Part shown: positions 9,130 to 45,810 of the stretch, one piece after another
How positions within the stretch are numbered: the stretch's first letter is position 1
How the letters are laid out: the number at the start of each line of letters is the position of its first letter
Assembly: GCF_022045235.1 (NCBI RefSeq)
Contig: NW_027266286.1
Coordinates: 1,191,856 to 1,255,855 of the forward strand
Direction of reading: 5' to 3'
Source: Haliotis cracherodii
Taxonomy: Eukaryota
DNA: 64,000 bases
Notes under the pieces: model-generated
Seen by the model: only the letters and a program-made list of their open reading frames with translations
The model's database searches: none
What the model was told of the DNA's origin: nothing
Made by a program: the position numbers and the translations under genes

Positions 9130-10735
9130 TGTATATTTGCGTTGATGTTATAGTAATAATAGTGGGATGTTACAGAAGTAATAGTGGGATGTTACAGTAA
9201 AAATAGTGGGATGTAACAGTAGTAATAGTGGGATGTTACAGTAGTAATAGTGGGATGTTACAGTAATAATAGTGGGATGTTACAGTAGTAATAGTGGGAT
9301 GTTACAGTAATAATAGTGGGATGTTACAGTAGTAATAGTGGGATGTTACAGTAATAATAGTGGGATGTTACAGTAGTAATAGTGGGATGTAACAGTAATA
9401 ATAGTGGGATGTTACAGTAATAATAGTGGGATGTTACAGTAGTAATAGTGGGATGTTACAGTAGTAATAGTGGGATGTTACAGTAGTAATAGTGGGATGT
9501 AACAGTAATAATAGTGGGATGTTACAGTAGTAATAGTAGGATGTTACAGTAATGAGTGAGTGAGTTTGGTTTTACGCCGCTTTTAGCAATATTCCAGCAA
9601 ATATCACGGCGGGGGACACCAGAAATGGGTTTCACACATTGTACCCATGTCGGGAATCGAACCCGGGTCTTCGGCGTGACGAGCGAACGCTTTAACCACT
9701 AGGCTACCCGACCGCCCCGGATGTTACAGTAGTAATAGTGGGATGTTACAGTAGTAATAGTAGGATGTTACAGTAATAATAGTGGGATGTTACAGTAGTA
9801 ATAGTGGGATGTTAAAGTAGTAATAGTGGGATGTTACAGTAGTAATAGTAGGTTGTTACAGTAATAACAGTGGGATGTTACAGTAGTAATAGTGGGATGT
9901 TACAGTAAAAATAGTGGGATGTTACAGTAAAAATAGTGGGATGTTACAGTAATAACAGTGGGATGTTACAGTAGTAATAGTGGGATGTTACAGTAGTAAT
10001 AGTAGGATGTAACAGTAATAATAGTGGGATGTTACAGTAGTAATAGTAGGATGTTACAGTAATAACAGTGGGATGTTACAGTAGTAATAGTGGGATGTTA
10101 CAGTAGTAATGGTGGGATGTAACAGTAATAATAGTGGGATGTTACAGTAGTAATAATAGGATGTTACAGTAATAACAGTGGGATGTTACAGTAGTAATAG
10201 TGGGATGTTACAGTAGTAATAGTAGGATGTAACAGTAATAATAGTGGGATGTTACAGTAGTAATAGTAGGATGTTACAGTAGTAATAGATGGATGTTACA
10301 GTAGTAATAGTAGGATGATACAGTAATAATAGTGGGATGTTACAGTAGTAATAGTGGGATATTAAAGTAGTAATAGTGGGATGTTACAGTAGTAATAGTA
10401 GGATGTTACAGTAATAACAGTGGGATGTTACAGTAGTAATAGTGGGATGTTACAGTAGTAATAGTAGGATGTAACAGTAATAATAGTGGGATGTTACAGT
10501 AGTAATAATAGGATGTTACAGTAGTAATAGTGGGATGTTACAGTAGTAATAGTAGGATGATACAGTAATAATAGTGGGATGTTACAGTAGTAATAGTGGG
10601 ATGTTACAGTAGTAATAGTGGGATGTTACAGTAGTAATAGTAGGATGTTACAGTAATAACAGTGGGATGTTACAGTAGTAATAGTGGGATGTTACAGTAG
10701 TAATAGTGGGATGTAACAGTAATAATAGTCAGGTG
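9130..10735. repeat. 22-bp minisatellite agtaatagtgggatgttacagt (about 65 units, interrupted by a SINE at 9554-9718), abutting the exon 2 donor of the minus-strand gene
   Basis: On the minus strand the first unit after GCAG|gtaacacctgactattatt is actgtaacatcccactattact, i.e. a copy of the donor region. Confidence 0.85.
9554..9718 (-). mobile_element. SINE family A copy inserted inside the 22-bp minisatellite
   Basis: Reverse complement of the family-A consensus. Array units flank both sides (..gatgttacagtaat| and |gatgttacagtagtaat). Confidence 0.6.
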
Positions 10736-10739
10736 TTAC

Positions 10740-11174
10740 CTGCACCAAAGACGCTGAGATACAGATGGCCGTTCTGCGTCAAGTTGTGGAACGCCTCCAA
10801 GGTGATAGTTCTTTCTGTTGTGTTCTTCCAGCAGTGCTGTGGTATGATGGATTGTGAGGAGTTTCCCGAATGTATCAAACAGTCAGATCCAGTCAAATTA
10901 TTTTGCATTGTAGGCAGATCTAGACCATACGATATGATGGCAGGCGTATTGTTTTTTGTCATGTCGTATGTCACACCGATAGAGACACTTCCAGGGCCAA
11001 GGTTTTCATTTGTCGGTTTGAACCTCTTTAATGTGACATAGAAGTCCTCTTGTGATTGAAGTTTACAGGAGCAAAGAGGAGCAGTAAATTTCGCTCCCTC
11101 ATCCATGTATAATATCACGGGGGTCTGGGAGCTGTTTGTCTCCTGGTCGGTACACATGGGAATGAGACGAGAGG
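10740..11174 (-). CDS. Exon 2, ectodomain with about 8 N-x-S/T sequons and 5 Cys; ..ASRLIPMCTDQETNSSQTPVILYMDEGAKF..NLTQNGHLYLSVFGA(+g)
   Basis: Non-repetitive 142-aa ORF 10729..11157(-) in the track. Acceptor ttttccag|cc at 11174. Donor GCAG|gtaaca at 10739. No stops for 145 codons and GC-rich codon usage. Confidence 0.7.
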
Positions 11175-11456
11175 CTGGAAAAGGAAGAAAAATACAATTA
11201 GTTGCTGGTTCGGGTCCAAATTGAGATTTAGTGGCAAGCTAGGAACATTTTGTATTTATTAGACAAATGAAGTATTTGTAAATTTCTTTTGCCGGACCTA
11301 CACCTATGTCCTAGCCTCTGACAACTCCAAGGCTATATATACTACAAAGAGTCATAGGTCTTCATAGGGGTTATTTCAACAAAATATTAATTTATGTTAG
11401 ATTTAAATAATGTCTTTGGTATTTATCTTCTCTCTGTGCTGGTAATCTAAATAAAT

Positions 11457-11606
11457 CGGGGCGGTCAGGTAACCTAGTGGTTTAAGCGTTCATTCATCAC
11501 GCCAAGACCCGGGTACGATTCCCATTTCTGGTGTCCCCCCTGCCGTGATATTGCTCGAATATTGCCAAAAGCGTCATAAAACCATATTTACTCACTCACT
11601 CACTCT
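11457..11606 (+). mobile_element. SINE family A copy (internal deletion)
   Basis: gggcggtcaggtaacctagtggtttaagcg..ttctggtgtcccccctgccgtgatattgc..aaaagcgtcataaaacc..(actc)n. Confidence 0.55.
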
Positions 11607-11904
11607 AAGTAAATCATAATGTCCAATATTTGTAGTTATATTTGCAGATAACAGATTAACTTCTACAGCAGCTGCTATGTATTATTATAAATCTTTACAT
11701 GATGATGGGACTCATCAGACTCAGTACTGTCCGCAATTAGTATCATCAGCGTCTTTACTTGTGTCGTTATTTTAAATACAAAAAATAAAGCAATAAAGAA
11801 TTCAATTGACATGCAAACATCAACCTATTTTTCATTCGGGAAATCAAGTCGCAAGCAGAAGCCTGTTGTCTTGCACTTGGAGGTACGCTACTGCATGTAA
11901 TGAT

Positions 11905-12375
11905 TCTTGCTGACAAAGCCAACCACATGTTTATTGCACCTGTGGACATGGATTGACAGGTGTTTATTGCACCTGTGGACATGGATTGACAGGTGTTTAT
12001 TGCACATGTGGACATGGATTGACTGGTGTTTATTGCATCTGTGGACATGGATTGACAGGTGTTTATTGCACATGTGGACATGGATTGACAGGTGTTAATT
12101 GCATCTGTGGACATGGATTGACAGGTGTTTATTGCACATGTGGACATGGATTGACAGGTGTTTATTGCATCTGTGGACATGGATTGACAGGTGTTTATTG
12201 CACATGTGGACATAGATTGACAGGTGTTTATTGCATCTGTGGACATGGATTGACAGGTGTTTATTGCACCTGTGGACATGGATTGACAAGTGTTTATTGC
12301 ATCTGTGGACATAGATTGACAGGTGTTTATTGCATCTGTGGACATGGATTGACAGGTGTTTATGTACCTGTGGAC
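11905..12375. repeat. 33-bp minisatellite ggattgacaggtgtttattgcacMtgtggacat (about 14 units)
   Basis: ORFs on both strands (11767..12345, 11953..12396) have 11-aa periodicity. Confidence 0.8.
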
Positions 12376-12677
12376 ATTCTTCTGATTATAAAGTAATGAC
12401 TCAGAAATACGAGTGATAGCGACATAAAGTAAAAATATGATAGATCTGCTATCTTCAGACCTATTCTCCCCAGGAATCTCAATCGCTTAGTCAATGAAAT
12501 CGATGAACACGGTGTCCCACAACGAGTAGAAACATCCTCTGTAGTTTTATACTAACACCAGCAGGAAGTGTCAACACGCCACACACACCAGGGCCACTGT
12601 GACTGGTCAGTGCTGCTGCTGTTCCTATAGTTTACAGTTTGGCTTACGGGAGGAATGGTACTACATATGTATTGACC

Positions 12678-13212
12678 GCCTGTGTGGTCTAGTGGTAGAG
12701 CGTCCGCCCTGACAGCAGAAGGTCTGGGGTTTGATCCCCGGCTGCGTCATACCATAAGACGTTAAAAGATGGTACTTGTTGTTACCCTGTCTGGGGCTCG
12801 GGAATTAAAGGGCTAAAAACAAGGACTGGTCGGCTCGGAGTCAGTATACTGTGTCTGAGTGGGATATTCATGTTAAACTGTGGCATGGTATCTCAGTGGG
12901 CTAGCACTATAAATCGGCATCAGTCCGGACTAGTACAAGCAGCCACACACACACATACATGCATATCACTATTTAAGTGGGGGCGGTCGGGTAGCCTAGT
13001 GATTAAAGCGTTCGCTCGTCACGCCAATGACCCGGGTTCGATTCCCGACATGGGTACAATGTGTGAAGCCCATTTCTTGTGTCCCCCGCCGTGATATTGC
13101 TGGAATATTGCTAAAAGCCGCGTAAAACCATACTCACTCACTCACTCACTATTTAAGTGCAATAATCTTGGACGCGATGTTTAACCCCACTTCACCTCAC
13201 CTCACTACACAT
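12678..13212 (+). mobile_element. SINE family C (tRNA-derived head ggtctagtggtagagc..ggtttgatcccc, about 300 bp body, (CA)n, 3' cacctcacctcac) with SINE-A nested at 12980-13150
   Basis: Same element occurs at 1219-1514(+) and 32722-33052(-). The tRNA-like acceptor stem does not pair, so this is a SINE and not a tRNA gene. Confidence 0.6.
12980..13150 (+). mobile_element. SINE family A (tRNA-like head gggcggtcgggtagcctagtggttaaagcg..gggttcgattccc; tail ttgctaaaagcggcgtaaaacc + (ACTC)n) with 13-bp TSD cactatttaagtg
   Basis: Direct repeats cactatttaagtg at 12967-12979 and 13147-13159 flank the insert. The interrupted sequence is contiguous in the other SINE-C copy (..tataaatgcaataatcttg..). Confidence 0.7.
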
Positions 13213-13476
13213 GTATCATGAATGGGTTCCTTTGAAAGACCTGGGATGCATCAGCAGGACATGTAATTCATTTGATGATAGTAAATGCATCTGTATGTCC
13301 GTGCTCTGTGCTCACGGGGCCAAGTCATCATCAGCTCAGTCAAGTGGACAGTGTGCATACACATCACATTCGTCACATTACCATCTCATCCTACCGGGTA
13401 CCCATTCACTGCTTGGTGAACAGAGGCATGCCCCTGGCCCCAGATGGAACTCGTGTCAACTCGTCATACCCCAGAC

Positions 13477-13634
13477 GGGCAGTCAGGTAGCCTAGTGGTT
13501 TAAGCGTTCACTCGTCACGCCGAAGACCAGACATGGGTACAATGTGTGAAGCCCATTTCTGGTGTCCCCCATCGGGATATTGCTGGAATATTGCTAAAGG
13601 CAGTGTCAAATCATATTCACTCACTCACTAACTC
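13477..13634 (+). mobile_element. SINE family A copy
   Basis: gggcagtcaggtagcctagtggtttaagcg..ggtacaatgtgtgaagcccatttctggtgtccccc..ttgctaaaggcagtgtcaaatc..cactcactcactaactc. Confidence 0.55.
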
Positions 13635-13639
13635 ATGTG

Positions 13640-14754
13640 TGTCATATCTCATACCTAGATGGAACTCATGTGTCATACCCCAGACCCAGATGGAACTCAT
13701 GTGTCATACCCCAGACCCAGATGGAAGTCATGTGTCATACCTCATAACCAGATGGAACAAGTGTGTCATACCCCAGTCCCAAATGGAGCTCGTGTCATAC
13801 CCCAGACCCAGGTGGGACAAGTGTGAGACTTACCGTGCCCTAGGTGGGACTCGTGTGTCATACCCCCTACCCAGGTGGGACAAGTGTGTCATACCCTCTA
13901 CCCAGGTGGGACAAGTGTGTCATACCCCCTACCCAGGTGGGACAAGTGTGAGACTTACCGTGCCCGAGGTGGGACTCGTGTGTCATACCCTCTACCCAGG
14001 CGGGACAAGTGTGAGACTTACCGTGCCCCAGGCGGGACAAGTGTGAGACTTACTGTGCCCCAGGTGGGACAAGTGTGAGACTTACCTTGTCCCAGGTGGG
14101 ACAAGTGTGAGACTTACCTTGCCCCAGGTGGGACAAGTGTGAGACTTACCGTGCCCCAGGCGGGACTCGTGTGTCATACCCTCTACCCAGGCGGGACAAG
14201 TGTGAGACTTACCGTGCCCCAGGCGGGACAAGTGTGAGACTTACTGTGCCCCAGGCGGGACAAGTGTGAGACTTACTGTGCCCCAGGCGGGACAAGTGTG
14301 TGACTTACTGTGCCCCAGGTGGAACAAGTGTGTGACTTACTGTGCCCCAGGTGGAACAAGTGTGAGACTTACTGTGCCCCAGGCGGGACAAGTGTGAGAC
14401 TTACTGTGCCCCAGACGGGACAAGTGTGAGACTTACTGTGCCCCAGGTGGAACAAGTGTGAGACTTACTGTGCCCCAGGTGGAACAAGTGTGAGACTTAC
14501 TGTGCCCCAGGTGGAACAAGTGTGAGACTTACTGTGCCCCAGGCGGGACAAGTGTGAGACTTACTGTGCCCCAGGCGGGACAAGTGTGAGACTTACCGTG
14601 CCCCAGGTGGGACTCGTGTGTCATACCCTCTACCCAGGTGGGACTCGTGTGTCATACCCTCTACCCAGGCGGGACAAGTGTGAGACTTACCGTGCCCCAG
14701 GCGGGACAAGTGTGAGACTTACCGTGCCCCAGGCGGGACAAGTGTGAGACTTAC
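13640..14754. repeat. 31-32-bp composite minisatellite. Proximal units are copies of the minus-strand exon 1 end plus its GTAAGT donor (minus reading ggggcacg|gtaagtctcacacttgtcccgcct).
   Basis: The array starts exactly at the donor (14754) and runs through intron 1. Distal units shift to tcataccccagacccagatggaactcatgtg. Confidence 0.85.
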
Positions 14755-14806
14755 CGTGCCCCAGAGACGTGACAGCCAGGAGAATGTACAGTGTGTTGGC
14801 CTCCAT
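14755..14806 (-). CDS. Exon 1 (coding part) of a novel type I membrane glycoprotein; signal peptide MEANTLYILLAVTSLGH(+g)
   Basis: ATG with Kozak context (A at -3, G at +4) and a hydrophobic h-region. Canonical donor CACG|gtaagt. The phase-1 end joins exon 2 in frame. Not in the ORF track; the listed ORF 14719..14952 is in another frame. Confidence 0.5.
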
Positions 14807-22378: not shown

Positions 22379-22490
22379 TTACTACAAATTGGACAACACA
22401 GAGCAGGACATCATTAACAAGTATCTGTCTGGCTTGGTAGAGAAGGCACTGATAGAACTCGAGGGTTCTTACTGTCTGCAAGTTGGTGAG
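22379..22490 (+). CDS. SNRNP200: U5 snRNP 200 kDa helicase (Brr2) exon, C-terminal Sec63 region; encodes (t)YYKLDNTEQDIINKYLSGLVEKALIELEGSYCLQVGE
   Basis: Acceptor tgtattgcag|tt, donor GAG|gtgagt. Translation aligns with human SNRNP200 YYNL..[30 protein letters not shown] from memory. Phase links to next exon. Homology recalled, not searched. Confidence 0.75.
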
Positions 22491-23440
22491 GTGAGTGATG
22501 GAACGTGAGGGTTCTTACTGTCTGCAAGTTGGTGAGGTGAGTGATGGAATGTGAGGGTTCTTACTTTCGGCAAATTGGTGAGGTGAGTGATGTAATGTGA
22601 GGGTTCTTACTGTCTGCAAGTTGGTGAGGTGAGCAATGTGAGGGTTCTTACTGTCTGCAAGTTGGTGAGGTGATTGATGGAACGTGAGGGTTCTTACTGT
22701 CTGCAAGTTGGTGAGTTGAGCGATGGAACATGAGAGTTCTTACTGTCTGAAAGTTGGTGAGGTGAGCAATGTGAGGGTTCTTACTGTCTGCAAGTTGGTG
22801 AGTTGAGCGATGGAACATGAGGGTTCTTACTGTCTGCAAGTTGGTGAGGTGAGTGACGGAATGTGAGGGTTCTTACTGTCTGCAAGTTGGTGAGGTGAGT
22901 GATGGAACGCGAGGGTTCTTACTGTCGGCGAGTTGGTGAAGTGAGTGATGTAATGTGAGGGTTCTTACTGTCTGCATGTTGGTGAGTTGAGCGATGGAAC
23001 ATGAGGGTTCTTACTGTCTGCAAGTTGGTGAGGTGAGCAATGTGAGGGTTCTTACTGTCTGCAAGTTGGTGAGGTGATTGATGGAACGTGAGGGTTCTTA
23101 CTGTCTGCAAGTTGGTGAGTTGAGCGATGGAACATGAGAGTTCTTACTGTCTGCAAGTTGGTGAGGTGAGCAATGTGAGGGTTCTTACTGTCTGCAAGTT
23201 GGTGAGTTGAGTGACGGAATGTGAGGGTTCTTACTGTCTGCAAGTTGGTGAGGTGAGTGATGGAACCTCGAGGGTTCTTACTGTCTGCAAGTTGGTGAGG
23301 TGAGTGACGGAATGTGAGGGTTCTTACTGTCTGCAAGTTGGTGAGGTGAGTGATGGAACGCGAGGGTTCTTACTGTCTGCAAGTTGGTGAGGTGAGAGAT
23401 GGATCTTGAAGCTTCCTACTGTTTGCAAGTTGGTGAGAGC
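22461..23440. repeat. 45-46-bp minisatellite (about 21 units), each unit a copy of the SNRNP200 exon A 3' end plus its 5' splice site (gagggttcttactgtctgcaagttggtgag|gtgagtgatggaaYgt)
   Basis: The first unit is the authentic exon end and donor; the rest follow head-to-tail in the intron. Every unit retains GAG|GTGAGY. Confidence 0.9.
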
Positions 23441-24187: not shown

Positions 24188-24322
24188 GACAACCGCAGCA
24201 TCACGCCGCTGACCCTCGGCCGCATCTCCTCCTACTACTACCTCAACCACAACACTGTGCGCATGTTCTGTAACGAACTCAAGGCTGAGTCGACACTGCC
24301 AGAACTCTTGGACATCTTGTCT
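24188..24322 (+). CDS. SNRNP200: SNRNP200 exon; DNRSITPLTLGRISSYYYLNHNTVRMFCNELKAESTLPELLDILS
   Basis: Acceptor tgtgtgtttccag|gac, donor TCT|gtaagt, 45 codons in phase 0. Matches human [43 protein letters not shown]. Confidence 0.88.
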
Positions 24323-25390: not shown

Positions 25391-25446
25391 AATGCCCACG
25401 AGTATGCGGAGCTCCCAGTCCGCCACAATGAGGACCAGATCAACAG
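25391..25446 (+). CDS. SNRNP200: SNRNP200 exon; NAHEYAELPVRHNEDQIN(+ag)
   Basis: Acceptor ttaattcccag|aat, donor ACAG|gtaggt. Matches human [20 protein letters not shown]. Ends in phase 2. Confidence 0.85.
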
Positions 25447-25785
25447 GTAGGTGGCTTGTTTTCAGTCATCTGACATCTTTTTGAAAACTACACGGCCAGT
25501 GGAGCTGAAACGTGAGGCTGTGAAAAGAATGTGAGTTAAGATGTCTTTGACTTTGTTGAACAAGGCCCAGTTCTTCAGGTATGTCAGGAGTGTTGTCAGT
25601 CAGCTCGATGTGCAGGAAGAACCAGGTCTTAGACGTTTGTCACTTGGTGTCACCTGCTGGTATGGTTTTGACGCTGACAAATACAATCATTATCAGGACG
25701 ACTCTGGCACTTAACCCATGATTATCGGACTGCACTGCACAGCAAATGAGGCACTGATTGTTATGTTTGTTATGTTTCCTGGTAG

Positions 25786-25954
25786 CGACCTGGCCCAGAA
25801 GGTCCCCCTGGCGGTGAACCCCCACTCGTACGACTCCGCCCACACCAAAACCCACATCCTGCTGCAGGCTCACTTCTCCCAGATGCAGCTGCCGTCCACC
25901 GACTACTACACCGATACCAAGTCTGTCCTGGACCAGGCTATCAGGATCCTCCAG
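25786..25954 (+). CDS. SNRNP200: SNRNP200 exon; (S)DLAQKVPLAVNPHSYDSAHTKTHILLQAHFSQMQLPSTDYYTDTKSVLDQAIRILQ
   Basis: Acceptor tttcctggtag|c, donor CAG|gtgggt. Strong match to human [54 protein letters not shown]. GC-rich codon usage versus AT-rich flanks. Confidence 0.9.
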
Positions 25955-25959
25955 GTGGG

Positions 25960-28900
25960 TCACCTCAACCTCCCCTCAACCCCATCAAAGCCCTCAACTT
26001 CCCACAACCCCCCTCAACTTCCCACAAACCCCACAACTTCCCACAACTCTCCTCAATCCCCCTCAACCTCCCCTCAACCCCCTTTAACTCCCCTCAATCC
26101 CCCCTCAAGTCCCCTCAACTCCCCATAATTCCCCTCAACTCCTCATAACTCAACTCAACCTCCCCCCCACCCCCGTCAAACCAACACCCCTCAACCCCAC
26201 AACTCCCTTAGTCCCTGAATCCCTGAATCCCCTTCTCAACCAGCTCACACTTCTTACACACAACCTAAAATCCCTCAGACCCTTCAACACCACTCAAACA
26301 CCCTCACACAACCTCAAACAGCTCAAACTCACACCCCACAAGCCCCTACCCCTCACCCATCTCATCTCTCAGTGATGGACCAAGCCACCCTAGCACACCC
26401 TAGCACATCCCAACACACCCCAGCACACCCCAGCACACCCTAGCATGCCCTAGCACATTAGCACACCCTAGCACACCATAGCACACCCCAGTACACCCTA
26501 TCATGCCCTAGCACACCCTAGCACACCCCAGCACACCCTAGCATGCCCTAGCATGCCCTAGTACACCCTAGCACACCCTAGCATGCCCTAGTACACCCTA
26601 GCACACCCTAGCACACCCTAGTACACCCCAGTACACCCTAGCACACCCCAGTACACCCTAGCATGCCCTAGTACACCCTAGCACACCCTAGCACACCCTA
26701 GCACACCCCAGTACACCCTAGCATGCCCTAGTACACCCTAGCACACCCTAGCACACCCTAGCATGCCCTAGCACACCCTAGCACACCCCAGTACACCCTA
26801 GCACACCCTAGCACGCCCTAGCACACCCTAGCATGCCCTAGCACACCCTAGCACACCCCAGTACACCCTAGCATGCCCTAGTACACCCTAGCACACCCTA
26901 GTACACCCTAGCATGCCCTAGCATGCCCTAGCACACCCTAGCATGCCCTAGTACACCCTAGCACACCCTAGTACACCCTAGCATGCCCTAGCACACCCTA
27001 GCACACCCCAGTACACCCTAGCATGCCCTAGCACACTCCAGTACACCCTAGCATGCCCTAGCACACCCCAGCACACCCCAGTACACCCTAGCACACCCTA
27101 GCATGCCCTAGCACACCCCAGTACACCCTAGCATGCCCTAGTACACCCTAGCACACCCTAGCACACCCCAGTACACCCTAGCATGCCCTAGTACACCCTA
27201 GCACACCCTAGCACACCCCAGTACACCCTAGCATGCCCTAGTACACCCTAGCACACCCCAGTACACCCTAGCACACCCCAGTACACCCTAGCATGCCCTA
27301 GTACACCCTAGCACACCCTAGCACACCCTAGTACACCCTAGCACACCCTAGCACACCCTAGCATGCCCTAGTACACCCTAGCACACCCCAGTACACCCTA
27401 GCATGCCCTAGTACACCCTAGCACACCCTAGCACACCCTAGCACACCCTAGTACACCCCAGTACACCCTAGCACACCCCAGTACACCCTAGCATGCCCTA
27501 GTACACCCTAGCACACCCTAGCATGCCCTAGCACACCCTAGCACACCCAGGCACACTCCAGTACACCCTAGCATGCCCTAGTACACCCTAGCACACCCTA
27601 GCACACCCTAGCACACCCTAGTACACCCCAGTACACCCTAGCACACCCCAGTACACCCTAGCATGCCCTAGTACACCCTAGCACACCCTAGCACACCCTA
27701 GCATGCCCTAGCACACCCTAGCACACTCCAGTACACCCTAGCATGCCCTAGCACACCGTAGCACACTCCAGTACACCCTAGCACACCCTAGCACACCCTA
27801 GCATGCCCTAGCACACCCTAGCACACCCCAGTACACCCTAGCACACCCTAGCACGCCCTAGCACACCCTAGCATGCCCTAGCACACCCTAGCACACCCCA
27901 GTACACCCTAGCATGCCCTAGTACACCCTAGCACACCCTAGTACACCCTAGCATGCCCTAGCACACCCTAGCATGCCCTAGTACACCCTAGCACACCCTA
28001 GCACACCCTAGTACACCCTAGCATGCCCTAGCACACCCTAGCACACCCCAGTACACCCTAGCATGCCCTAGCACACTCCAGTACACCCTAGCATGCCCTA
28101 GCACACTCCAGTACACCCTAGCATGCCCTAGCACACCCCAGCACACCCCAGTACACCCTAGCACACCCTAGCATGCCCTAGCACACCCTAGCACACCCCA
28201 GCACACTCCAGCACACCCTAGCACACCCCAGTACACCCTAGCACACCCTAGCACGCCCTAGCACACCCTAGCACACCCCAGTACACCCTAGCATGCCCTA
28301 GCACACCCTAGCACACCCCAGTACACCCTAGCATGCCCTAGCACACCCCAGCACACCCCAGTACACCCTAGCATGCCCTAGCACACCCCAGTACACCCTA
28401 GCATGTCCTAGCACACCCTAGCACACCCCAGCACACCCCAGTACACCCTAGCACACCCCAGTACACCCTAGCATGTCCTAGCACACCCTAGCACACCCCA
28501 GCACACCCCAGTACACCCTAGCACACCCTAGCATGCCCTAGCACACCCTAGCACACCCCAGTACACCCTAGCATGCCCTAGCACACCCTAGCACACCCTA
28601 GCATGCCCTAGCACACCCCAGTACACCCCAGTACACCCTAGCACACCCTAGCATGCCCTAGCACACCCTAGCACACCCCAGTACACCCCAGTACACCCTA
28701 GCATGCCCTAGCACACCCTAGCACACCCCAGTACACCCTAGCACACCCTAGCATGTCCTAGCACACTCTAGCACACCCTAGCACGTCCCAGTACACCCTA
28801 GCACACCCTAGCATGTCCTAGCATGCCCTAGCACACCCTAGCACACCCCAGCACACTCCAGCACGCCCTAGCACACCCTAGCACACCCCAGCACACCCCA

Positions 28901-28990
28901 GCACACCCTAGCACACCCCAGCACACTCCAGCACGCCCTAGCACACCCTAGCACACCCCAGCACACTCCAGTACACCCTAGCAGACTCCA
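25960..28990. repeat. Degenerate (cccctcaaY)n tract, then a 2.6 kb array of 10-bp cctagcacac variants (cctagtacac, cctagcatgc), in the SNRNP200 D-E intron
   Basis: Visible periodicity at 26340-28990. ORFs 25718..26128 and 28868..29101 are artefacts. Confidence 0.85.
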
Positions 28991-29809
28991 GCACGCCCAT
29001 TCCCACTCCACCCACTCTCCACTCCACAACCATTTCTTTCCCTGAGAACCATGTTCAACAAGTGTAGCTCCTTCCAGGCATGTGACACCTTCGGTACACA
29101 CTCGGTATCATCGCTGCCACCAGTGTGGGCGCGGCCATTACAAAAATCTTGAAATTTGGCCTCTAACCCCAAATGTAGTAAAGTTTATACTTTTGTTAAT
29201 GTCTTTGGGAATGCCATCACAGTTAATTTTGAAAAGGTTTACGACTGATCATATTTCCCAGATGAATTTACATTTTTGTTTGATTGATCGGATTGGTTCG
29301 AGATTGCAGACAAACAGAAATTCAACCAACTTCCCCCTTAATATAACAAATGTTATATTTGGGATAACACTTTCTTTGTATAGTACAGATTCTCGTACTT
29401 GTTTAGGTTGAGTTCCACCCACACATGCCAGAGTGAGGCACCTTATCGCCAGCACACAAAGCCACCAATCTAACCCACTCAGCCACCGAGGCTTCCACAA
29501 AATGAAAGTCCAACAACTGGTAGTCTAGATCACGTACTTTGTGTACCCCTCTGAACAAATTTCTGTGCAAATTGGCACAGCTCCCATGGCCGAAAGCTAT
29601 GAATACTCATTGCATTTAGAAAGTGGTCAAATGTACATTCTTATTTTACCAGTTACATGATAGTTGTAATGAAAATAGAAATTCAAACTGGGAAACAAAG
29701 AAAATAATTAAGCTGGGGTAAGAGTATTCAGCGTCACGGCAGTCATCAATTGTTTCTAAACATAACTGTCAGTCGACTGCGAGTTCAACACCAAGCATGG
29801 TTGTAGCCA

Positions 29810-30431: not shown

Positions 30432-30583
30432 GCCATGCTGGATGTGTCAGCGGACCAGGGATGGTTGGCGACGTCACTGCGGGTGATTCAACTGATCCAG
30501 ATGGTGGTGCAAGGTCGATGGCTGGAGGACTCGACCCTCCTCACCCTCCCTAACGTCATGCCCTACCATGTGTACTGCTTCAG
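30432..30583 (+). CDS. SNRNP200: SNRNP200 exon; AMLDVSADQGWLATSLRVIQLIQMVVQGRWLEDSTLLTLPNVMPYHVYCF(+ag)
   Basis: Acceptor cacctcacag|gcc, donor CAG|gtacgt. Matches human [50 protein letters not shown]. Phase 0 continuity with the previous exon (..AIRILQ|AM..). Confidence 0.88.
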
Positions 30584-31800
30584 GTACGTAGAGTCCCATC
30601 ATGCACTGCTTCAGGTACGTACAGTCCCATCATGCACTGCTTCAGGTACGTACAGTCCCATCATGCCCTGCTTCAGGTATATACAGTCCCATCATGCACT
30701 GCTTCAGGTACGTACAGTTCCGTCATGCACTGCTTCAGGTATATACAGTCCCATCATGCACTGCTTCAGGTACGTACAGTCCCATCATGCACTGCTTCAG
30801 GTACGTACAGTCCCATCATGCCCTGCGTCAGGTACGTACAGTCCCATCATGCACTGTGTCAGGTATGTATACTCCCATCAGGCACTGTGTCAGTTATGTA
30901 CAGTCCCATCATGCCTAGCGTTAGTTATGTACACTCCCATCATGCACTGTGTCAGTTACATACAGTCCCATCATGCACTGCCTCAGTTATGTACACTCCC
31001 ATCATGCACTGCCTCAGTTATGTACACTCCCATCATGCACTGCCTCAGTTATGTACACTCCCATCATGCACTGCATCAGTTACGTACACTCCCATCATGC
31101 ACTGTGTCAGTTACGTACACTCCCATCATGCACTGCCTCAGTTATGTACACTCCCATCATGCACTGCATCAGTAACGTACACTCCCATCATGCACTGTGT
31201 CAGGTATGTACACTCCCATCATGCCCTGCCTCAGTTATGTACACTCCCATCATGCACTGTGTCAGGTATGTACACTCCTATCATGCACTGCCTCAGTTAT
31301 GTACACTCCCATCATGCACTGCGTCAGTAACGTACACTCCCATCATGCCCTGCCTCAGTTATGTACACTCCCATCATGCACTGCCTCAGTTACGTACAGT
31401 CCCATCATGCTCTGCCTCAGTTATGTACACTCCCATCATGCACTGCGTCAGGTACGTAAGCTCCCATCATGCACTGCCTCAGTTATGTACACTCCCATCA
31501 TGCACTGCCTCAGTTACGTACAGTCCCATCATGCACTGCCTCAGTTATGTACACTCCCATCATGCACTGCCTCAGTTACGTACACTCCCATCATGCACTG
31601 CCTCGGGTACGTACACTCCCATCATGCCCTGCCTCAGTTATGTACACTCCCATCATGCCCTGCCTCAGTTACGTACACTCCCATCATGCACTGCCTCGGG
31701 TACGTACACTCCCATCATGCCCTGCCTCAGTTATGTACACTCCCATCATGCCCTGCCTCAGTTACGTACACTCCCATCATGCACTGCGTCAGGTATGTAC
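30571..31800. repeat. 31-bp minisatellite (about 39 units) derived from the exon E 3' end plus donor (catgcactgcttcag|gtacgtacagtcccat). It fills essentially the whole 1.26 kb E-F intron.
   Basis: Authentic junction is ..tgtactgcttcag|gtacgtagagtcccat. Proximal units keep CAG|GTACGT; most distal units have CAG|TTATGT or CAG|TTACGT (GT lost). Confidence 0.9.
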
Positions 31801-31845
31801 ACTCCTACTGTATAAAGTGACAGACAGGACATGTTGTTTGTTCAG

Positions 31846-31996
31846 GCCCCGAGGTGGAGGCGCCAGGCAGAAAGGTTTCCCAGAGCTGCGAGGACCAATC
31901 GAAACTCTCCCAGAGCTTGTGGCGGTGTGTGAGGGGAAGTTTGAGGCCCTGGCTGCCATGTTGAATGGTGAAATGAACCAGACAGAGATTGATCAG
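31846..31996 (+). CDS. SNRNP200: SNRNP200 exon; (R)PRGGGARQKGFPELRGPIETLPELVAVCEGKFEALAAMLNGEMNQTEIDQ
   Basis: Acceptor tgtttgttcag|g, donor CAG|gtgagg. Starts in phase 1 and ends in phase 0. Corresponds to human ..[32 protein letters not shown]. Confidence 0.8.
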
Positions 31997-32026
31997 GTGA
32001 GGTCTTGTCTTACTCTTGTAGGGGAC

Positions 32027-32150: not shown

Positions 32151-32341
32151 CTTCTGTGATGTATGTATTAACAGTTGACTTCTTTGATGTATGTATTAAC
32201 AGTTTACTTCTTTGATGTATGTATTAACAGTTTACTTCTTTGATGTATGTATTAACTGTTCACTTCTTTGAAATAAGTGATGATTTTAGAAATCATGTGG
32301 ACAGGTGTTTGTAGCAACAATGGTTATAATTTTCACTTCAG

Positions 32342-32456
32342 GTGTACCTCGTATTGAGTCGTCTGCCACAAATCCAGGTCTCTATCAAGGTCAAGGGATT
32401 CTGGGAAGGGTCAGAGGGGAAGGAGGAGGCGAGAATGGTCAATCTGTCCAACACAG
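32342..32456 (+). CDS. SNRNP200: SNRNP200 exon; VYLVLSRLPQIQVSIKVKGFWEGSEGKEEARMVNLSNT(+g)
   Basis: Acceptor tttcacttcag|gtg, donor ACAG|gtaggg. RLPQIQVSIKV matches human RYPNIELSYEV. The track ORF 32342..32653 reads through into the intronic (GAT)n. Confidence 0.82.
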
Positions 32457-32554
32457 GTAGGGCATGTTTCATTTCGGGGAACTGTTCCATATTCCTTGTT
32501 CCGGTAGCATCCACGCCTACATCCGGATGTCTGGAATTTGTTGATTGTACTACT

Positions 32555-36619: not shown

Positions 36620-37260
36620 TTATGTGTTAGCTGGGTGATCATGATGATGATGACAATGATGATGTTGACGATGATGACCCTGTTTATGACAGTGATGATC
36701 ATGTTGATGATGATGATGATGATGTTGACGATGATGACCCTGTTTATGACAGTGATGATCATGTTGATGATAATGATCATGATCATGTTGACGATGATGA
36801 CCCTGTTTATGACAGTGATGATCATGTTGATGATGTTGATGATGATCATGTTGACGATAATGACCCTGTTTATGCAAGTGATGATCATGTTGATGATGAT
36901 GATGATGATCATCATGTTGACGATGATGACCCTGTTTATGACAGTGATGATCATGTTGATGATGATGATCATCATCATGTTGACGATGATGACCCTGTTT
37001 ATGACAGTGATCATGTTGATGATGATGATGATGATCATGTTGACGATGATGACCCTGTTTATGACAGTGATGATCATGTTGATGATGATGATCATCATCA
37101 TGTTGACGATGATGACCCTGTTTATGACAGTGATGATCATGTTGATGATGATGATGATGATGATGATGTTGACGATGATGACCCTGTTTATGACAGTGAT
37201 GATCATGTTGATGATGATGACAATAATGATGATGATGATGATGATGATGATGATCTGTTG
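36620..37260. repeat. About 60-bp array of (GAT)n + gttgacgatgatgaccctgtttatgacagtgatgatcatgtt, running to 3 bp before the exon H acceptor
   Basis: Right-hand terminal repeat of the GIY-YIG element. The poly-His minus-strand ORF 36620..37348 is an artefact. Confidence 0.85.
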
Positions 37261-37263
37261 CAG

Positions 37264-37355
37264 GTGGGCGGCGGCGAGATGCGGACTGGATCAAGGTCCA
37301 TGCTGACCAGGAGTATGTGCTGCAGGTCGACCTGGCCCGAGTTAACAAGACCCGG
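37264..37355 (+). CDS. SNRNP200: SNRNP200 exon; (G)GRRRDADWIKVHADQEYVLQVDLARVNKTR
   Basis: Acceptor ctgttgcag|gt lies directly after an intronic (GAT)n array with a weak pyrimidine tract. Donor CGG|gtgagt. Phase is consistent with both flanking exons. Corresponds to human GGPVVVLVQLEREEEV. Confidence 0.75.
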
Positions 37356-38195
37356 GTGAGTCCTGTACTACATCAAGTAGCCCAGTGGCGTAGACGTCCA
37401 TTATGGAGCAGATGAAGATGTCAAATACATCGTCATGAACATGCTTTTGTCAGCATCAGCCTGTTCATTGAGACATGTTCATTGAGACATGTTCATTGAG
37501 ACACTGGGAGAAGCTGCCTCCACAGGGTTCCTTGTCAAAATCTGTTATTCCAACAGATGCTGTAAATCTTGAAATTATTGCATCTCCAAATTAATACGAC
37601 TGCTGACCCCTAGCAAAAAATGCGACTCTAAATCAATGCGACTCCTCCAACCCCATTCCCATGATACATACATATTTACCTTAATCCAATCAAACGGCAA
37701 ACAGCAAACAGCACTGTATAGAGCACTTCCATAAAACAATAAACACTGTTTTCCTAAAAACAACACACAGTTTATATGTTTACTCTGTTGACTGGCATTA
37801 AAGAAGTTCAAAGGCCATAAAATAATTGAACCAACAGTTCACTGATTGATATGCGGAGACGGTGTTAATCAGCTTGACACGAGTGGATACAACTCTTGAC
37901 CCCAGCACTGATAACTCACCAGATGCCTGTTGTTTAATTCCTATTCTTTGAATGACATTGTTTGGACTTGTTACAACTGCTGCTCAATAAACAGTGTTTG
38001 CGTATATATTCAAGTCGGAATTTCCACTATCCAAATTAACTATGCGAAGTTAATTAATGGGAGCAAAAACCACATTTTTTTAAAATTAATTCACGCTCGC
38101 GTTAATTTCAAGATTTACAGTAACTGATAATGTTGGACAGCGTAAAACCCAACTAACTCACTCTCTCATTAAAAGCCAATAATTTGTTACTTCAG

Positions 38196-38519
38196 AAATA
38201 CGACACCAAGGCCCACAGTCCACGGTTCCCGAAGCCGAAGGACGAAGGCTGGATGCTGGTTGTGGGCGAGGTGGAGACCAAGGAACTCATCGCCCTCAAG
38301 CGGATGGGGTACGTGCGGAGTCGCTCCAAGGCCCAGCTCGCTCTGTACACCCCGGAGACGGTGGGGCGTGTCATCTACACCCTCTACCTGATGAGCGACG
38401 CCTACCTTGGTCTTGACCAGCAATACGACATCTGTCTGGACGTTGTGCCATCCAGCATCGAGACACAGGTCAACACGGAGCTCAAGGAGGAACTAGATGG
38501 GCTTGATTTTGATAGCTGA
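38196..38519 (+). CDS. SNRNP200: SNRNP200 terminal coding exon; KYDTKAHSPRFPKPKDEGWMLVVGEVETKELIALKRMGYVRSRSKAQLALYTPETVGRVIYTLYLMSDAYLGLDQQYDICLDVVPSSIETQVNTELKEELDGLDFDS*
   Basis: Acceptor ttgttacttcag|aaa; TGA stop at 38517-38519. Matches the human C-terminus [51 protein letters not shown]. 3'UTR follows; a candidate AATAAA sits at 39038-39043 (low confidence). Confidence 0.9.
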   Translation, partial: KYDTKAHSPRFPKPKDEGWMLVVGEVETKELIALKRMGYVRSRSKAQLALYTPETVGRVIYTLYLMSDAYLGLDQQYDICLDVVPSSIETQVNTELKEELDGLDFDS

Positions 38520-40894: not shown

Positions 40895-43800
40895 AAGTAT
40901 CCCCTCTACAATTAAGTGTGCCCACAAGCCTACAATTAACTGTGCCCACAAGACTACAATTAAGTGTGCCCACAAGACTACAATTAAGTGTGCCCACAAG
41001 CCTACAATTAAGTGTGCCCACAAGCCTACAATTAAGTGTGCCCACAAGCCAACAATTAAGTGTGCCCACAAGACTACAATTAAGTGTGCCCACAAGCCAA
41101 CAATTAAGTGTGCCCACAAGCCAACAATTAAGTGTGCCCACAAGACTACAATTAAGTGTGCCCACAAGCCAACAATTAAGTGTGCCCACAAGCCAACAAT
41201 TAAGTGTGCCCACAAGCCAACAATTAAGTGTGCCCACAAGCCTACAATTAAGTGTGACCACAAGACTACAATTAAGTGTGCCCACAAGACTACAATTAAG
41301 TGTGCCCACAAGACTACAATTAAGTGTGCCCACAAGCCTACACTTAAGTGTGCCCACAAGCCTACAATTAAGTGTGCCCACAAGCCAACAATTAAGTGTG
41401 CCCACAAGCAAACAATTAAGTGTGCCCACAAGCCAACAATTAAGTGTGCCCACAAGCCAACAATTAAGTGTGCCCACAAGACTACAATTAAGTGTGCCCA
41501 CAAGCCTACAATTAAGTGTGCCCACAAGCCAACAATTAAGTGTGCCCACAAGACTACAATTAAGTGTGCCCACAAGCCAACAATTAAGTGTGCCCACAAG
41601 CCAACAATTAAGTGTGCCCACAAGCCTACAATTAAGTGTGCCCACAAGCCTACAATTAAGTGTGCCCACAAGACTACAATTAAGTGTGCCCACAAGCCTA
41701 CAATTAAGTGTGCCCACAAGCCTACAATTAAGTGTGCCCACAAGCCTACACTTAAGTGTGCCCACAAGACTACAATTAAGTGTGCCCACAAGCCAACAAT
41801 TAAGTGTGCCCACAAGCCAACAATTAAGTGTGCCCACAAGCCAACAATTAAGTGTGCCCACAAGACTACAATTAAGTGTGCCCACAAGCCAACAATTAAG
41901 TGTGCCCACAAGCCAACAATTAAGTGTGCCCACAAGACTACAATTAAGTGTGCCCACAAGCCAACAATTAAGTGTGCCCACAAGCCAACAATTAAGTGTG
42001 CCCACAAGCCAACAATTAAGTGTGCCCACAAGCCTACAATTAAGTGTGCCCACAAGCCTACAATTAAGTGTGCCCACAAGCCAACAATTAAGTGTGCCCA
42101 CAAGACTACAATTAAGTGTGCCCACAAGACTATGATTAAGTGTGCCCACAAGCCTACAATTAAGTGTGCCCACAAGCCTACAATTAAGTGTGCCCACAAG
42201 CCTACAATTAAGTGTGCCCACAAGACTACAATTAAGTGTGCCCACAAGCCTTCAATTAAGTGTGCCCACAAGCCTACAATTAAGTGTGCCCACAAGACTA
42301 CAATTAAGTGTGCCCACAAGACTACAATTAAGTGTGCCCACAAGCCTACACTTAAGTGTGCCTACAAGCCTACAATTAAGTGTGCCCACAAGCCTACAAT
42401 TAAGTGTGCCCACAAGCCTACAATTAAGTGTGCCCACAAGCCTTCAATTAAGTGTGCCCACAAGCCTACAATTAAGTGTGCCCACAAGACTACAATTAAG
42501 TGTGCCCACAAGACTACAATTAAGTGTGCCCACAAGCCTACAATTAAGTGTGCCCACAAGGCTACAATTAAGTGTGCCAACAAGACTATGATTAAGTGTG
42601 CCCACAAGACTACAATTAAGTGTGCCCTCTACAATTAAGTGTGCCCACAAGACTACAATTAAGTGTGCCCACAAGACTACAATTAAGTGTGCCCACAAGA
42701 CTACAATTAAGTGTGCCCACAAGACTACAATTAAGTGTGCCCACAAGCCTACAATTACGTGTGCCCACAAGACTACAATTAAGTGTGCCCACAAGCCAAC
42801 AATTAAGTGTGCCCACAAGCCTACAATTAAGTGTGCCCACAAGCCTACAATTAAGTGTGCCCACAAGACTACAATTAAGTGTGCCCACAAGACTACAATT
42901 AAGTGTGCCCACAAGACTATGATTAAGTGTGCCCACAAGACTATGATTAAGTGTGCCCACAAGCCTACAATTAGGTGTGCCCACAAGACTACAATTAAGT
43001 GTGCCCACAAGACTATGATTAAGTGTGCCCACAAGCCTACAATTAAGTGTGCCCACAAGACTACAATTAAGTGTGCCCACAAGACTATGATTAAGTGTGC
43101 CCACAAGACTACAATTAAGTGTGCCCACAAGCTTACAATTAAGTGTGCCCACAAGCCTACAATTAAGTGTGCCCACAAGCCAACAATTAAGTGTGCCCAC
43201 AAGCCAACAATTAAGTGTGCCAACAAGCCTACAATTAAGTGTGCCCACAAGCCAACAATTAAGTGTGCCCACAAGACTACAATTAAGTGTGCCCACAAGC
43301 CAACAATTAAGTGTGCCCACAAGCCAACAATTAAGTGTGCCCACAAGCCAACAATTAAGTGTGCCCACAAGATTATGATTAAGTGTGCCCACAAGCCAAC
43401 AATTAAGTGTGACCACAAGACTACAATTAAGTGTGCCCACAAGCCAACAATTAAGTGTGACCACAAGACTACAATTAAGTGTGCCCACAAGCCAACAATT
43501 AAGTGTGACCACAAGACTACAATTAAGTGTGCCCACAAGCCAACAATTAAGTGTGCCCACAAGCCTACAATTAAGTGTGCCCACAAGCCTACAATTAAGT
43601 GTGCCCACAAGCCTACAATTAAGTGTGCCCACAAGCCAACAATTAAGTGTGACCACAAGACTACAATTAAGTGTGCCCACAAGACTACAATTAAGTGTGC
43701 CCACAAGACTATGATTAAGTGTGCCCACAAGACTATGATTAAGTGTGCCCACAAGCCTACAATTAAGTGTGCCCACAAGACTACAATTAAGTGTGCCCAC

Positions 43801-45810
43801 AAGCCAACAATTAAGTGTGCCCACAAGACTACAATTAAGTGTGCCCACAAGCCTACAATTAAGTGTGCCCACAAGCCTACAATTAAGTGTGCCCACAAGC
43901 CTACAATTAAGTGTGCCCACAAGCCAACAATTAAGTGTGCCCACAAGACTACGATTAAGTGTGCCCACAAGCCTACAATTAAGTGTGCCCACAAGACTAC
44001 AATTAAGTGTGCCCACAAGCCAACAATTAAGTGTGACCACAAGACTACAATTAAGTGTGCCCACAAGCCAACAATTAAGTGTGACCACAAGACTACAATT
44101 AAGTGTGCCCACAAGCCAACAATTAAGTGTGCCCACAAGACTATGATTAAGTGTGCCCACAAGCCTACAATTAAGTGTGCCCACAAGACTACAATTAAGT
44201 GTGCCCACAAGCCAACAATTAAGTGTGACCACAAGACTACAATTAAGTGTGCCCACAAGCCTACAATTAAGTGTGACCACAAGACTACAATTAAGTGTGC
44301 CCACAAGCCAACAATTAAGTGTGCCCACAAGCCTACAATTAAGTGTGCCCACAAGACTACAATTAAGTGTGCCCACAAGCCTACAATTAAGTGTGCCCAC
44401 AAGACTACAATTAAGTGTGCCCACAAGACTATGATTAAGTGTGCCCACAAGACTATGATTAAGTGTGCCCACAAGCCTACAATTAAGTGTGCCCACAAGA
44501 CTACAATTAAGTGTGCCCACAAGCCAACAATTAAGTGTGCCCACAAGACTACAATTAAGTGTGCCCACAAGCCTACAATTAAGTGTGCCCACAAGACTAC
44601 AATTAAGTGTGCCCACAAGACTATGATTAAGTGTGCCCACAAGACTACAATTAAGTGTGCCCACAAGCCTACAATTAAGTGTGCCCACAAGACTACAATT
44701 AAGTGTGCCCACAAGCCAACAATTAAGTGTGCCCACAAGCCAACAATTAAGTGTGCCCACAAGACTATGATTAAGTGTGCCCACAAGCCTACAATTAAGT
44801 GTGCCCACAAGCCAACAATTAAGTGTGCCCACAAGACTATGATTAAGTGTGCCCACAAGCCAACAATTAAGTGTGCCCACAAGCCAACAATTAAGTGTGC
44901 CCACAAGACTACGATTAAGTGTGCCCACAAGCCTACAATTAAGTGTGCCCACAAGACTACAATTAAGTGTGCCCACAAGCCAACAATTAAGTGTGACCAC
45001 AAGACTACAATTAAGTGTGCCCACAAGCCAACAATTAAGTGTGACCACAAGACTACAATTAAGTGTGCCCACAAGCCAACAATTAAGTGTGCCCACAAGA
45101 CTATGATTAAGTGTGCCCACAAGCCTACAATTAAGTGTGCCCACAAGACTACAATTAAGTGTGCCCACAAGCCAACAATTAAGTGTGCCCACAAGCCAAC
45201 AATTAAATGTGCCCACAAGACTATGATTAAGTGTGCCCACAAGCCAACAATTAAGTGTGCCCACAAGACTATGATTAAGTGTGCCCACAAGCCTACAATT
45301 AAGTGTGCCCACAAGACTACAATTAAGTGTGCCCACAAGCCTACAATTAAGTGTGCCCACAAGACTACAATTAAGTGTGCCCACAAGACTACAATTAAGT
45401 GTGCCCTCTACAATTAAGTGTGCCCACAAGACTACAATTAAGTGTGCCCACAAGCCTACAATTAAGTGTGCCCACAAGACTATGATTAAGTGTGCCCACA
45501 AGCCAACAATTAAGTGTGCCCACAAGACTACAATTAAGCGTGCCCACAAGCCTACAATTAAGTGTGCCCTCTACAATTAAGTGTGCCCACAAGCCTACAA
45601 TTAAGTGTGCCCACAAGCCTACAATTAAGTGTGCCCACAAGACTATGATTAAGTGTGCCCACAAGCCAACAATTAAGTGTGCCCACAAGCCAACAATTAA
45701 GCGTGCCCACAAGCCTACAATTAAGTGTGCCCTCTACAATTAAGTGTGCCCACAAGCCTACAATTAAGCGTGCCCACAAGCCTACAATTAAGTGTGCCCA
45801 CAAGAAGAAT
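40895..45810. repeat. 24-bp minisatellite acaattaagtgtgcccacaagMMt (about 200 units, 4.9 kb) with higher-order punctuation by gtgccctctacaattaag
   Basis: Punctuation units at about 40895, 42625, 45404, 45567 and 45731. Flanked by SINE-A (5') and SINE-D (3'). All six frames are open (900+ aa artefactual ORFs on both strands). Confidence 0.9.

Follow-up and report, generated by a model that had tools for sequence, protein, structure and literature searches.

A 31-bp minisatellite spanning an exon-intron junction fills an intron of an ASCC3-like gene in Haliotis cracherodii

How does an intron come to consist almost wholly of copies of its own 5' splice junction, and does the loss of GT in most of these copies reflect selection against mis-splicing? 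These questions are raised by a 64-kb stretch of DNA from Haliotis cracherodii (contig NW_027266286.1, positions 1,191,856 to 1,255,855; hereafter the window, to whose full length all coordinates refer), in which the intron between exons E and F of a helicase gene is occupied by a 31-bp tandem repeat. An initial annotation of the window had labeled this gene SNRNP200. The label was wrong, since exon E matched human ASCC3 (PDB 8alz_B, residues 1530-1580) with an E value of 1e-16, far better than SNRNP200 (1e-5), and three more exons ranked alike (1.9e-31 for ASCC3 in 8alz_B versus about 1e-13 for SNRNP200). When the mapped exons were joined into a 433-aa query, every named top match was ASCC3. 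The closest proteins overall showed 60-68% identity with this query, the best matches being those of Pinctada (68%), Solemya (67%), Magallana (67%), Lingula (66%), and Patella (65%), that is, molluscs and a brachiopod, and vertebrate proteins showed 53-55%. By these matches the window is lophotrochozoan and probably molluscan; an amphioxus origin, which the junction-spanning arrays and the density of minisatellites had suggested, was rejected on the same grounds. Judged by these protein matches, the gene is an ASCC3-like helicase, a paralogue within the Brr2 family, and the exons listed in Table 1 (A to H and the terminal exon) represent its C-terminal part.

The array in intron E-F

Tandem Repeats Finder (TRF) reported an array with a period of 31, 39.7 copies, 90% matches, no indels, and a score of 1741. 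The array accounts for 1222 of the 1262 nt of the intron (30584-31845), or 97%, and the initial description of this intron as being built almost entirely from about 39 copies of its own donor junction was thus borne out. All readings of the array were obtained from a single haplotype. A search with the 31-mer consensus (up to 3 mismatches) gave 27 in-register matches, compared with 0 in 100 shuffles; the same search gave no match elsewhere in the 64-kb window, and 0 matches were obtained in metagenome contigs. Nothing therefore suggests that the unit belongs to a dispersed satellite family.

The first unit spans the junction of exon E with the intron and contains the authentic donor, CAG/GTACGT (a slash marks the splice junction throughout). 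The unit reproduces the last 10 nt of exon E (ACTGCTTCAG) without change, and an alignment with one gap extends over about 19 nt, with a score reached by only 14 of 5000 shuffles. The intronic part of the first unit, GTACGTA.AGTCCCA, directly follows the exon-derived part. The unit had been described as the last 15 nt of exon E plus the start of the intron; its origin from the junction holds, but the exact figure of 15 does not, the exon share being about 10-19 nt. At the other end, the acceptor AG ends 40 nt beyond the array, instead of the approximately 45 bp given initially, and the mixed series of dead and live donor copies ends 54 nt from the acceptor. The array has no stop codon in any of the three frames across 19 units, and a TAA in copy 19 ends the read-through frame. 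Spurious open reading frames (ORFs) of 190-290 aa, which start in exon E or within the array, arise in this way on the plus strand (30435-31175 and 30949-31815). Such read-through ORFs, together with the many decoy GT sites, can mislead gene predictors.

These features correspond to a known class of junction-spanning minisatellites, which includes the F7, IFI6, CBS, LMNB2, and PDGF arrays and in which the most upstream donor is chosen (PMC1557585). The array is arranged head to tail with a minisatellite-sized unit. Its first monomer contains an authentic boundary together with real exon sequence; exon E was recognized by homology, and its end is conserved in a genome fragment of a relative (ENA ERZ25073280, ctg29983; L001). 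In addition, the splice-site consensus is repeated in the intronic copies, 15 of 39 of which keep GT at 7-8 of 9 consensus matches. Intervening sequence 7 (IVS7) of F7 harbors a 37-bp unit in 5-9 copies, whose pseudo-donors are functional yet silent and from which a monomer could be deleted without effect (Borensztajn et al. 2006, PMC1557585). As in F7, the first monomer spans the exon-intron boundary, and pseudo-donors identical to the authentic site lie downstream of it. On the other hand, the F7 copies are identical and contain 4 exon nt per unit, whereas the array described here has 39 pseudo-copies with 10-19 exon nt, fills the entire intron, and includes 24 copies without GT; the donor choice here is a predicted one. 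IVS13 of CBS (15-20 repeats) and intron 2 of IFI6 (also called 6-16), which has 25 pseudo-sites of which two proximal ones are used, also contain donor-spanning arrays of comparable copy number (PMC1557585).

A further parallel is found in the 'mirages' of amphioxus, which occur at either boundary in Adh3, the globin genes BflGb6/9, TnC, and PGBD5, are reported to leave splicing undisturbed, and keep AG/GT in many but not all units (PMC3087553, PMC3902484). Descriptions of 'mirage' arrays have hitherto come from cephalochordates, as a peculiarity of that group, and from a few human genes. The window resembles them in having tandem duplications at boundaries, in more than one gene of the same genome, with AG/GT in many units. 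It differs from these cephalochordate cases in being lophotrochozoan, in the higher copy number, and in that one array fills the intron. Tandem repetition of splice signals within genes is likewise shared with the tandem-born introns and alternative splice sites of Zhuo et al. (2007, PNAS) and Hellsten et al. (2011, PMC3265369); there the outcome is a new intron or isoform, whereas the present array inflates an intron at an ancestral position. A limited literature search found no description of a junction-spanning minisatellite in this phylum. The array in intron E-F is a real, unusually large case of the known class, and boundary duplications are not confined to amphioxus.

Probable origin of the array and predicted use of the first donor

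The orthologous intron was compared in L001 only, the nearest ASCC3 locus available for comparison. In L001, an intron is present at the same position, and the exon end is homologous in both protein and DNA (CCATACCATGTCTTCTGTATGAG/GTAAGA). The 31-bp array is absent from the orthologous intron of L001, which consists of 3.7 kb of unrelated repeats. Since the exon end is ancestral and constrained by the protein, it was the junction that gave rise to the array and not the reverse, and since the intron of L001 lacks the array, the expansion is lineage-specific. Furthermore, the residue at which exon E gives way to exon F is shared with L001 and with the ASCC3 locus of Pinctada imbricata (VSWD01000007.1; L003), which indicates that the intron predates the array.

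This shared position bears on the proposal that faulty assembly produced the array or its number of copies, or that the intron was born de novo from a tandem duplication. Long arrays of perfect period are hard to assemble, and tandem duplication of AG/GT is a documented route to new introns (PMC3265369, PMC4974935). However, the copies fall into 25 haplotypes, diverge in an ordered way, and form blocks, a pattern unlike that of an assembly that has been collapsed or inflated, and about 35 other arrays exist in the window. Intron gain by tandem duplication (the Rogers model) was excluded by the intron position common to L001 and Pinctada. An artefact or a de novo gain is therefore scarcely credible.

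The feature is best explained as a junction-spanning minisatellite of the 'mirage' type that has undergone ordinary array evolution and whose first donor is used, an explanation to which we assign a probability of roughly 0.78. As read from the sequence, slippage would have generated a tandem duplication of a seed of about 31 bp, consisting of the last 10-20 nt of exon E and the first 9-16 nt of the intron, and slippage or unequal exchange would then have expanded this seed to about 39 intronic copies. The proximal block would have stayed near the authentic junction, and the distal block would carry substitutions at -5, +1 (G>T), and +10 that were spread by amplification, in addition to CpG decay (GTACGT to GTATGT). 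In the final step, the first, exon-adjacent donor would be used and the whole array removed as an intron. Splicing from this donor gives an orthologue-congruent protein, and on the strength of this congruence and of the precedents we infer that the authentic donor is probably the one used, the pseudo-donors being predicted to be silent.

Loss of GT in the distal copies

Copies were counted in a donor-centred register, in which the authentic copy and 39 pseudo-copies make 40. CAG/GT was present in all nine of pseudo-copies 1 to 9 (five GTACGT, two GTATAT, copy 8 GTACGT, and copy 9 GTATGT). Among copies 10 to 39, TT was found in 22 of 30, TA in two (copies 19 and 24), and GT in six, namely copies 20, 22, 28, and 39 as CAG/GT and copies 33 and 36 as CGG/GT. 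The initial observations that the proximal copies keep the donor and that most distal copies read CAG/TTATGT or CAG/TTACGT were thus confirmed. When the units were aligned and the change from GT to TT was tabulated by position, the distribution was clearly non-random, with GT lost in 0 of 9 proximal and 24 of 30 distal copies (Fisher p=2.4e-5). Seven pseudo-copies have a 9-mer identical to that of the authentic donor. The predicted pairing of the 15 GT pseudo-copies with U1 ranged from -7.2 to -10.2 kcal/mol, on both sides of the authentic value (Table 1), and that of the TT and TA copies from -1.1 to -3.2 kcal/mol.

The initial annotation had interpreted this pattern as recurrent loss of GT from would-be cryptic donors, suggestive of purifying selection against mis-splicing. 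Such selection would act chiefly on the part near the acceptor. The proximal-distal split and the loss of predicted U1 pairing are in line with this interpretation, and a subfamily with G>T at +1 is also present in an independent array, array A (5 of 21 copies; see below). CBS offers a precedent, in that a base change within a repeat reportedly restricts alternative splicing; according to the title of Yang et al. 2000, as given in the reference list of PMC1557585, the substitution lies in the second repeat and 'prevents multiple alternate splicing'. However, the authentic donor is followed by nine intact pseudo-donors in series, and six more are found distally, including the last copy. The pseudo-sites of IFI6 and CBS that get used are the proximal ones (PMC1557585), whereas here the proximal pseudo-sites are intact, and the use of copies 1 and 2 would shift the frame and that of copy 3 would add 31 residues. 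More generally, use of pseudo-donors 1, 2, 4, 5, 7, or 8 would cause a frame shift, and use of 3, 6, or 9 would add 31, 62, or 93 residues without a stop. The pseudo-donors that are potentially harmful are exactly those retained. In F7, moreover, the pseudo-sites are silent without mutation (PMC1557585).

The distribution of variants over the unit also speaks against selection on the donor. Columns -5 and +10, which lie outside the 9-nt donor consensus, are split between the proximal and distal blocks in the same manner as +1 (Fisher 2.3e-6 and 6.4e-5, respectively). Column +1 ranks third in divergence among the 31 columns, and the chance that either GT column ranks in the top three is 0.19, so that +1 is unexceptional; the fourth variable column, +4, represents a CpG transition (GTACGT to GTATGT). 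The 24 non-GT copies comprise few haplotypes, with CAG/TTATGT in 13 and CAG/TTACGT in 7, and the self-identity of the distal part is slightly higher at lags of 62 and 93 nt. These results point to amplification of one or a few variants rather than many independent losses, and the loss of GT cannot be called recurrent on this basis. In addition, the share of units with GT is 75-100% in the remaining donor-anchored arrays of the window, and arrays X1 and X2 and an array of Pinctada (see below) retain it almost throughout. Purifying selection against mis-splicing is therefore unsupported as the cause and is, in our estimation, unlikely. The change from GT to TT is most simply regarded as a hitch-hiking marker of a subfamily and not as evidence of selection. 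Weak selection on the distal, acceptor-proximal block is still conceivable, and nothing observed requires it.

Several points weigh against ordinary array evolution with use of the first donor. The use of this donor rests on protein congruence and on mammalian and amphioxus precedents, and the classical 'proximity' rule for competing strong donors predicts that a downstream copy would be used. For the age of the expansion, the comparison reaches no nearer than L001, whose exon E shows 75% amino acid identity. All four combinations of the +1 and +10 alleles are present, so that G>T may have occurred more than once or the copies may have been converted by one another. Finally, the GT-less majority lies in the half near the acceptor, as selection against acceptor-proximal donors would also give. 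The locus can be viewed as a large natural analogue of the F7 IVS7 'model system', with nine equally strong pseudo-donors at 31-nt spacing followed by a mixture of dead and live ones. It could be used to test how 5' splice sites are chosen outside vertebrates, that is, by most-upstream 'scanning' or exon definition versus proximity to the acceptor.

Other junction-anchored arrays and the repeat landscape

Besides the array after exon E, three arrays in the window span or start at a donor (Table 1). In array A, 15 pseudo-copies keep GT (GAG/GTGAGT and similar), 5 form a TT subfamily (GAG/TTGAGC), and the last is truncated, giving 15 of 20 informative copies with GT. GTAAGT was kept in 20 of 20 main-type pseudo-units of array X1, and GT in essentially all of about 60 units of array X2. 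Exons X1 and X2 can be spliced in frame, and together with the conservation of exon X2 this supports a putative, unannotated gene on the minus strand (9144-14806); no Pfam family was detected in the minus-strand ORF fragments at 1-14.9 kb. Exon X2 and its array were also found in another species (Logan contig DRR299178_1518165; L002) with 88% nt and 80% aa identity, so that arrays of this kind can persist beyond speciation.

Table 1. Coordinates of exons and junction-anchored arrays in the window
Feature	Position	Strand	Remarks
Exon A	22380-22490	+	ASCC3-like gene
Array A, 46-bp unit	22450-23437	+	Last 41 nt of exon A plus GTGAG; 38/41 identical; 21 pseudo-copies
Exon B	24188-24322	+	ASCC3-like gene
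Exon C	25391-25447	+	ASCC3-like gene
Exon D	25784-25955	+	ASCC3-like gene; donor CAG/GTGGGT
Exon E	30432-30583	+	AMLDVSADQGW...MPYHVYCF; phase 2 end ...TTCAG; match to 8alz_B; tblastn with L001 ORFs and the Pinctada protein P0022
Authentic donor CAG/GTACGT	30581-30589 (G+1 at 30584)	+	Yields orthologue-congruent protein ...YCFR/PRGGG...; predicted U1 duplex -9.5 kcal/mol
31-bp junction-spanning minisatellite	30574-31805	+	TRF, unit tables, pattern search
Proximal block, pseudo-copies 1-9	30599-30877	+	All CAG/GT; four mutually identical and 1 nt from the authentic copy over -10..+15
Distal block, pseudo-copies 10-39	30878-31805	+	22 TT, 2 TA, 6 GT; marked by -5 C/G/A and +10 C
Non-repeat intron tail	31806-31845	+	Presumed branch point gtgAc (A at 31820), short pyrimidine tract, acceptor ttcAG
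Exon F	31846-31997	+	(R)PRGGGARQKGFPELRGPIETLPELVAVCEGK...EIDQ; tblastn with L001 and P0022
Exon G	32339-32458	+	ASCC3-like gene
Exon H	~37264-37355	+	ASCC3-like gene
Terminal exon	~38193-38516	+	ASCC3-like gene
Exon X1, putative first/signal-peptide exon	14806-14755	-	MEANTLYILLAVTSLGH; basis is in-frame splicing to X2 only
Array X1, 32-bp unit CTGGGGCACG/GTAAGTCTCACACTTGTCCCGC	13807-14764	-	Spans donor of the putative first exon of the minus-strand gene
Exon X2, conserved, N-glycosite-rich	11174-10740	-	Second exon of the putative minus-strand gene
Array X2, 22-bp unit GTAACATCCCACTATTACTACT	9144-10739	-	~72 copies; starts exactly at intron +1 after exon X2

Arrays at the boundaries of ASCC3 exons were also seen in the other species. 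In Pinctada imbricata, a 52-bp array of about 17 copies (L003, 3912-4825) extends across the donor of the orthologous exon D (…TKSVLDQAIRILQ/GTATAG) and keeps GT in most units, and a 173-bp duplication of 1.9 copies (5211-5543) covers the acceptor and exon E. In L001, a 150-bp array of 5.8 copies (9392-10255) is built of units that combine the 3' end of the intron and the acceptor with about 113 nt of the exon E orthologue, and it represents an acceptor-side 'mirage'. These cases hint that duplications of this type are a common feature of lophotrochozoan genomes. In the region from 700 to 8800 of L003, exons C, D, E, F, G, and the terminal exon of Pinctada each occur twice, interleaved and 0.4-2.9 kb apart; this doubling could be due to mis-assembly or to exon-wise duplication.

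Within the part of ASCC3 that was mapped, donor-spanning arrays numbered two, compared with 0.25 expected under uniform placement (P=0.026). This excess is suggestive, the comparison being post hoc and based on a small sample, and an ancestrally short intron would also raise the odds that a new array touches the donor. Four arrays in 64 kb start at or span donors (exons A, E, X1, and X2), one of them is shared at 12% divergence, and ASCC3 of Pinctada and of the second relative has junction-spanning arrays at other junctions. On this basis, minisatellites of this lophotrochozoan lineage may arise preferentially at donor junctions or survive preferentially there, a generalization that we regard as tentative and rather doubtful. 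If it were true genome-wide, it would imply a junction-associated mutational mechanism or else tolerance of, or selection for, repeated U1 sites, and a trace of weak selection on pseudo-donors might then be visible in the GT>TT subfamilies of arrays E and A.

The same excess could be taken to mean that the array acts as a functional RNA, in which repeated U1 sites help to define exon E or prevent premature cleavage, or in which self-correcting, 'ratchet'-like recursive splicing at YAG/GTACGT regenerates the junction. The proximal units, CTGCTTCAG/GTACGT, indeed place an acceptor-like YAG directly against a strong donor. However, the array is not conserved, being absent from the orthologous intron of L001, the donor has been lost in most units, and no branch-point-like motif is evident within them. 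Recursion is unneeded for an intron of 1.26 kb, and deletion of a monomer in F7 left splicing unchanged (PMC1557585). Moreover, a donor motif is missing from the majority of the window's 35 arrays: consensus units with at least 8 of 9 donor matches numbered 3, compared with 1.0 expected. A function of this kind is thus highly unlikely. The possibility that every array in the window is junction-derived was rejected by the same count.

Tandem arrays make up about 45% of the 64 kb, and about 35 distinct minisatellites with periods of 10-170 were distinguished. Two of them lie close to splice sites of the ASCC3-like gene. A degenerate 10-bp CCTCAACYCC array (25956-26165, plus strand) begins at +9 after the donor of exon D and is donor-adjacent, not junction-spanning. 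A 63-bp (GAT)n-rich array (36642-37263, plus strand) stops about 11 nt short of the acceptor of exon H (…gatgatgatctgttgcag/GTGGGC), where a pyrimidine tract is almost absent. The window also contains a 24-bp array of 205 copies (40906-45804), a 2.6-kb (CACCCTAGCA)n array (26386-28998), and recurrent (ACTC/GAGT)n microsatellites. Searches of the window with Rfam and ARAGORN gave just two marginal tRNA-like matches, which correspond to short interspersed nuclear element (SINE) or array sequence. The SINE family is tRNA-like and is represented at 12985-13056 (plus strand; Rfam tRNA, 29.4 bits) and by other copies. Its translated signature, …GSLV.KAFA.HA.DPGSIP..GTMCEAHFWCPPP, recurs in many copies on both strands of the window, and the end of one copy was found in L002.

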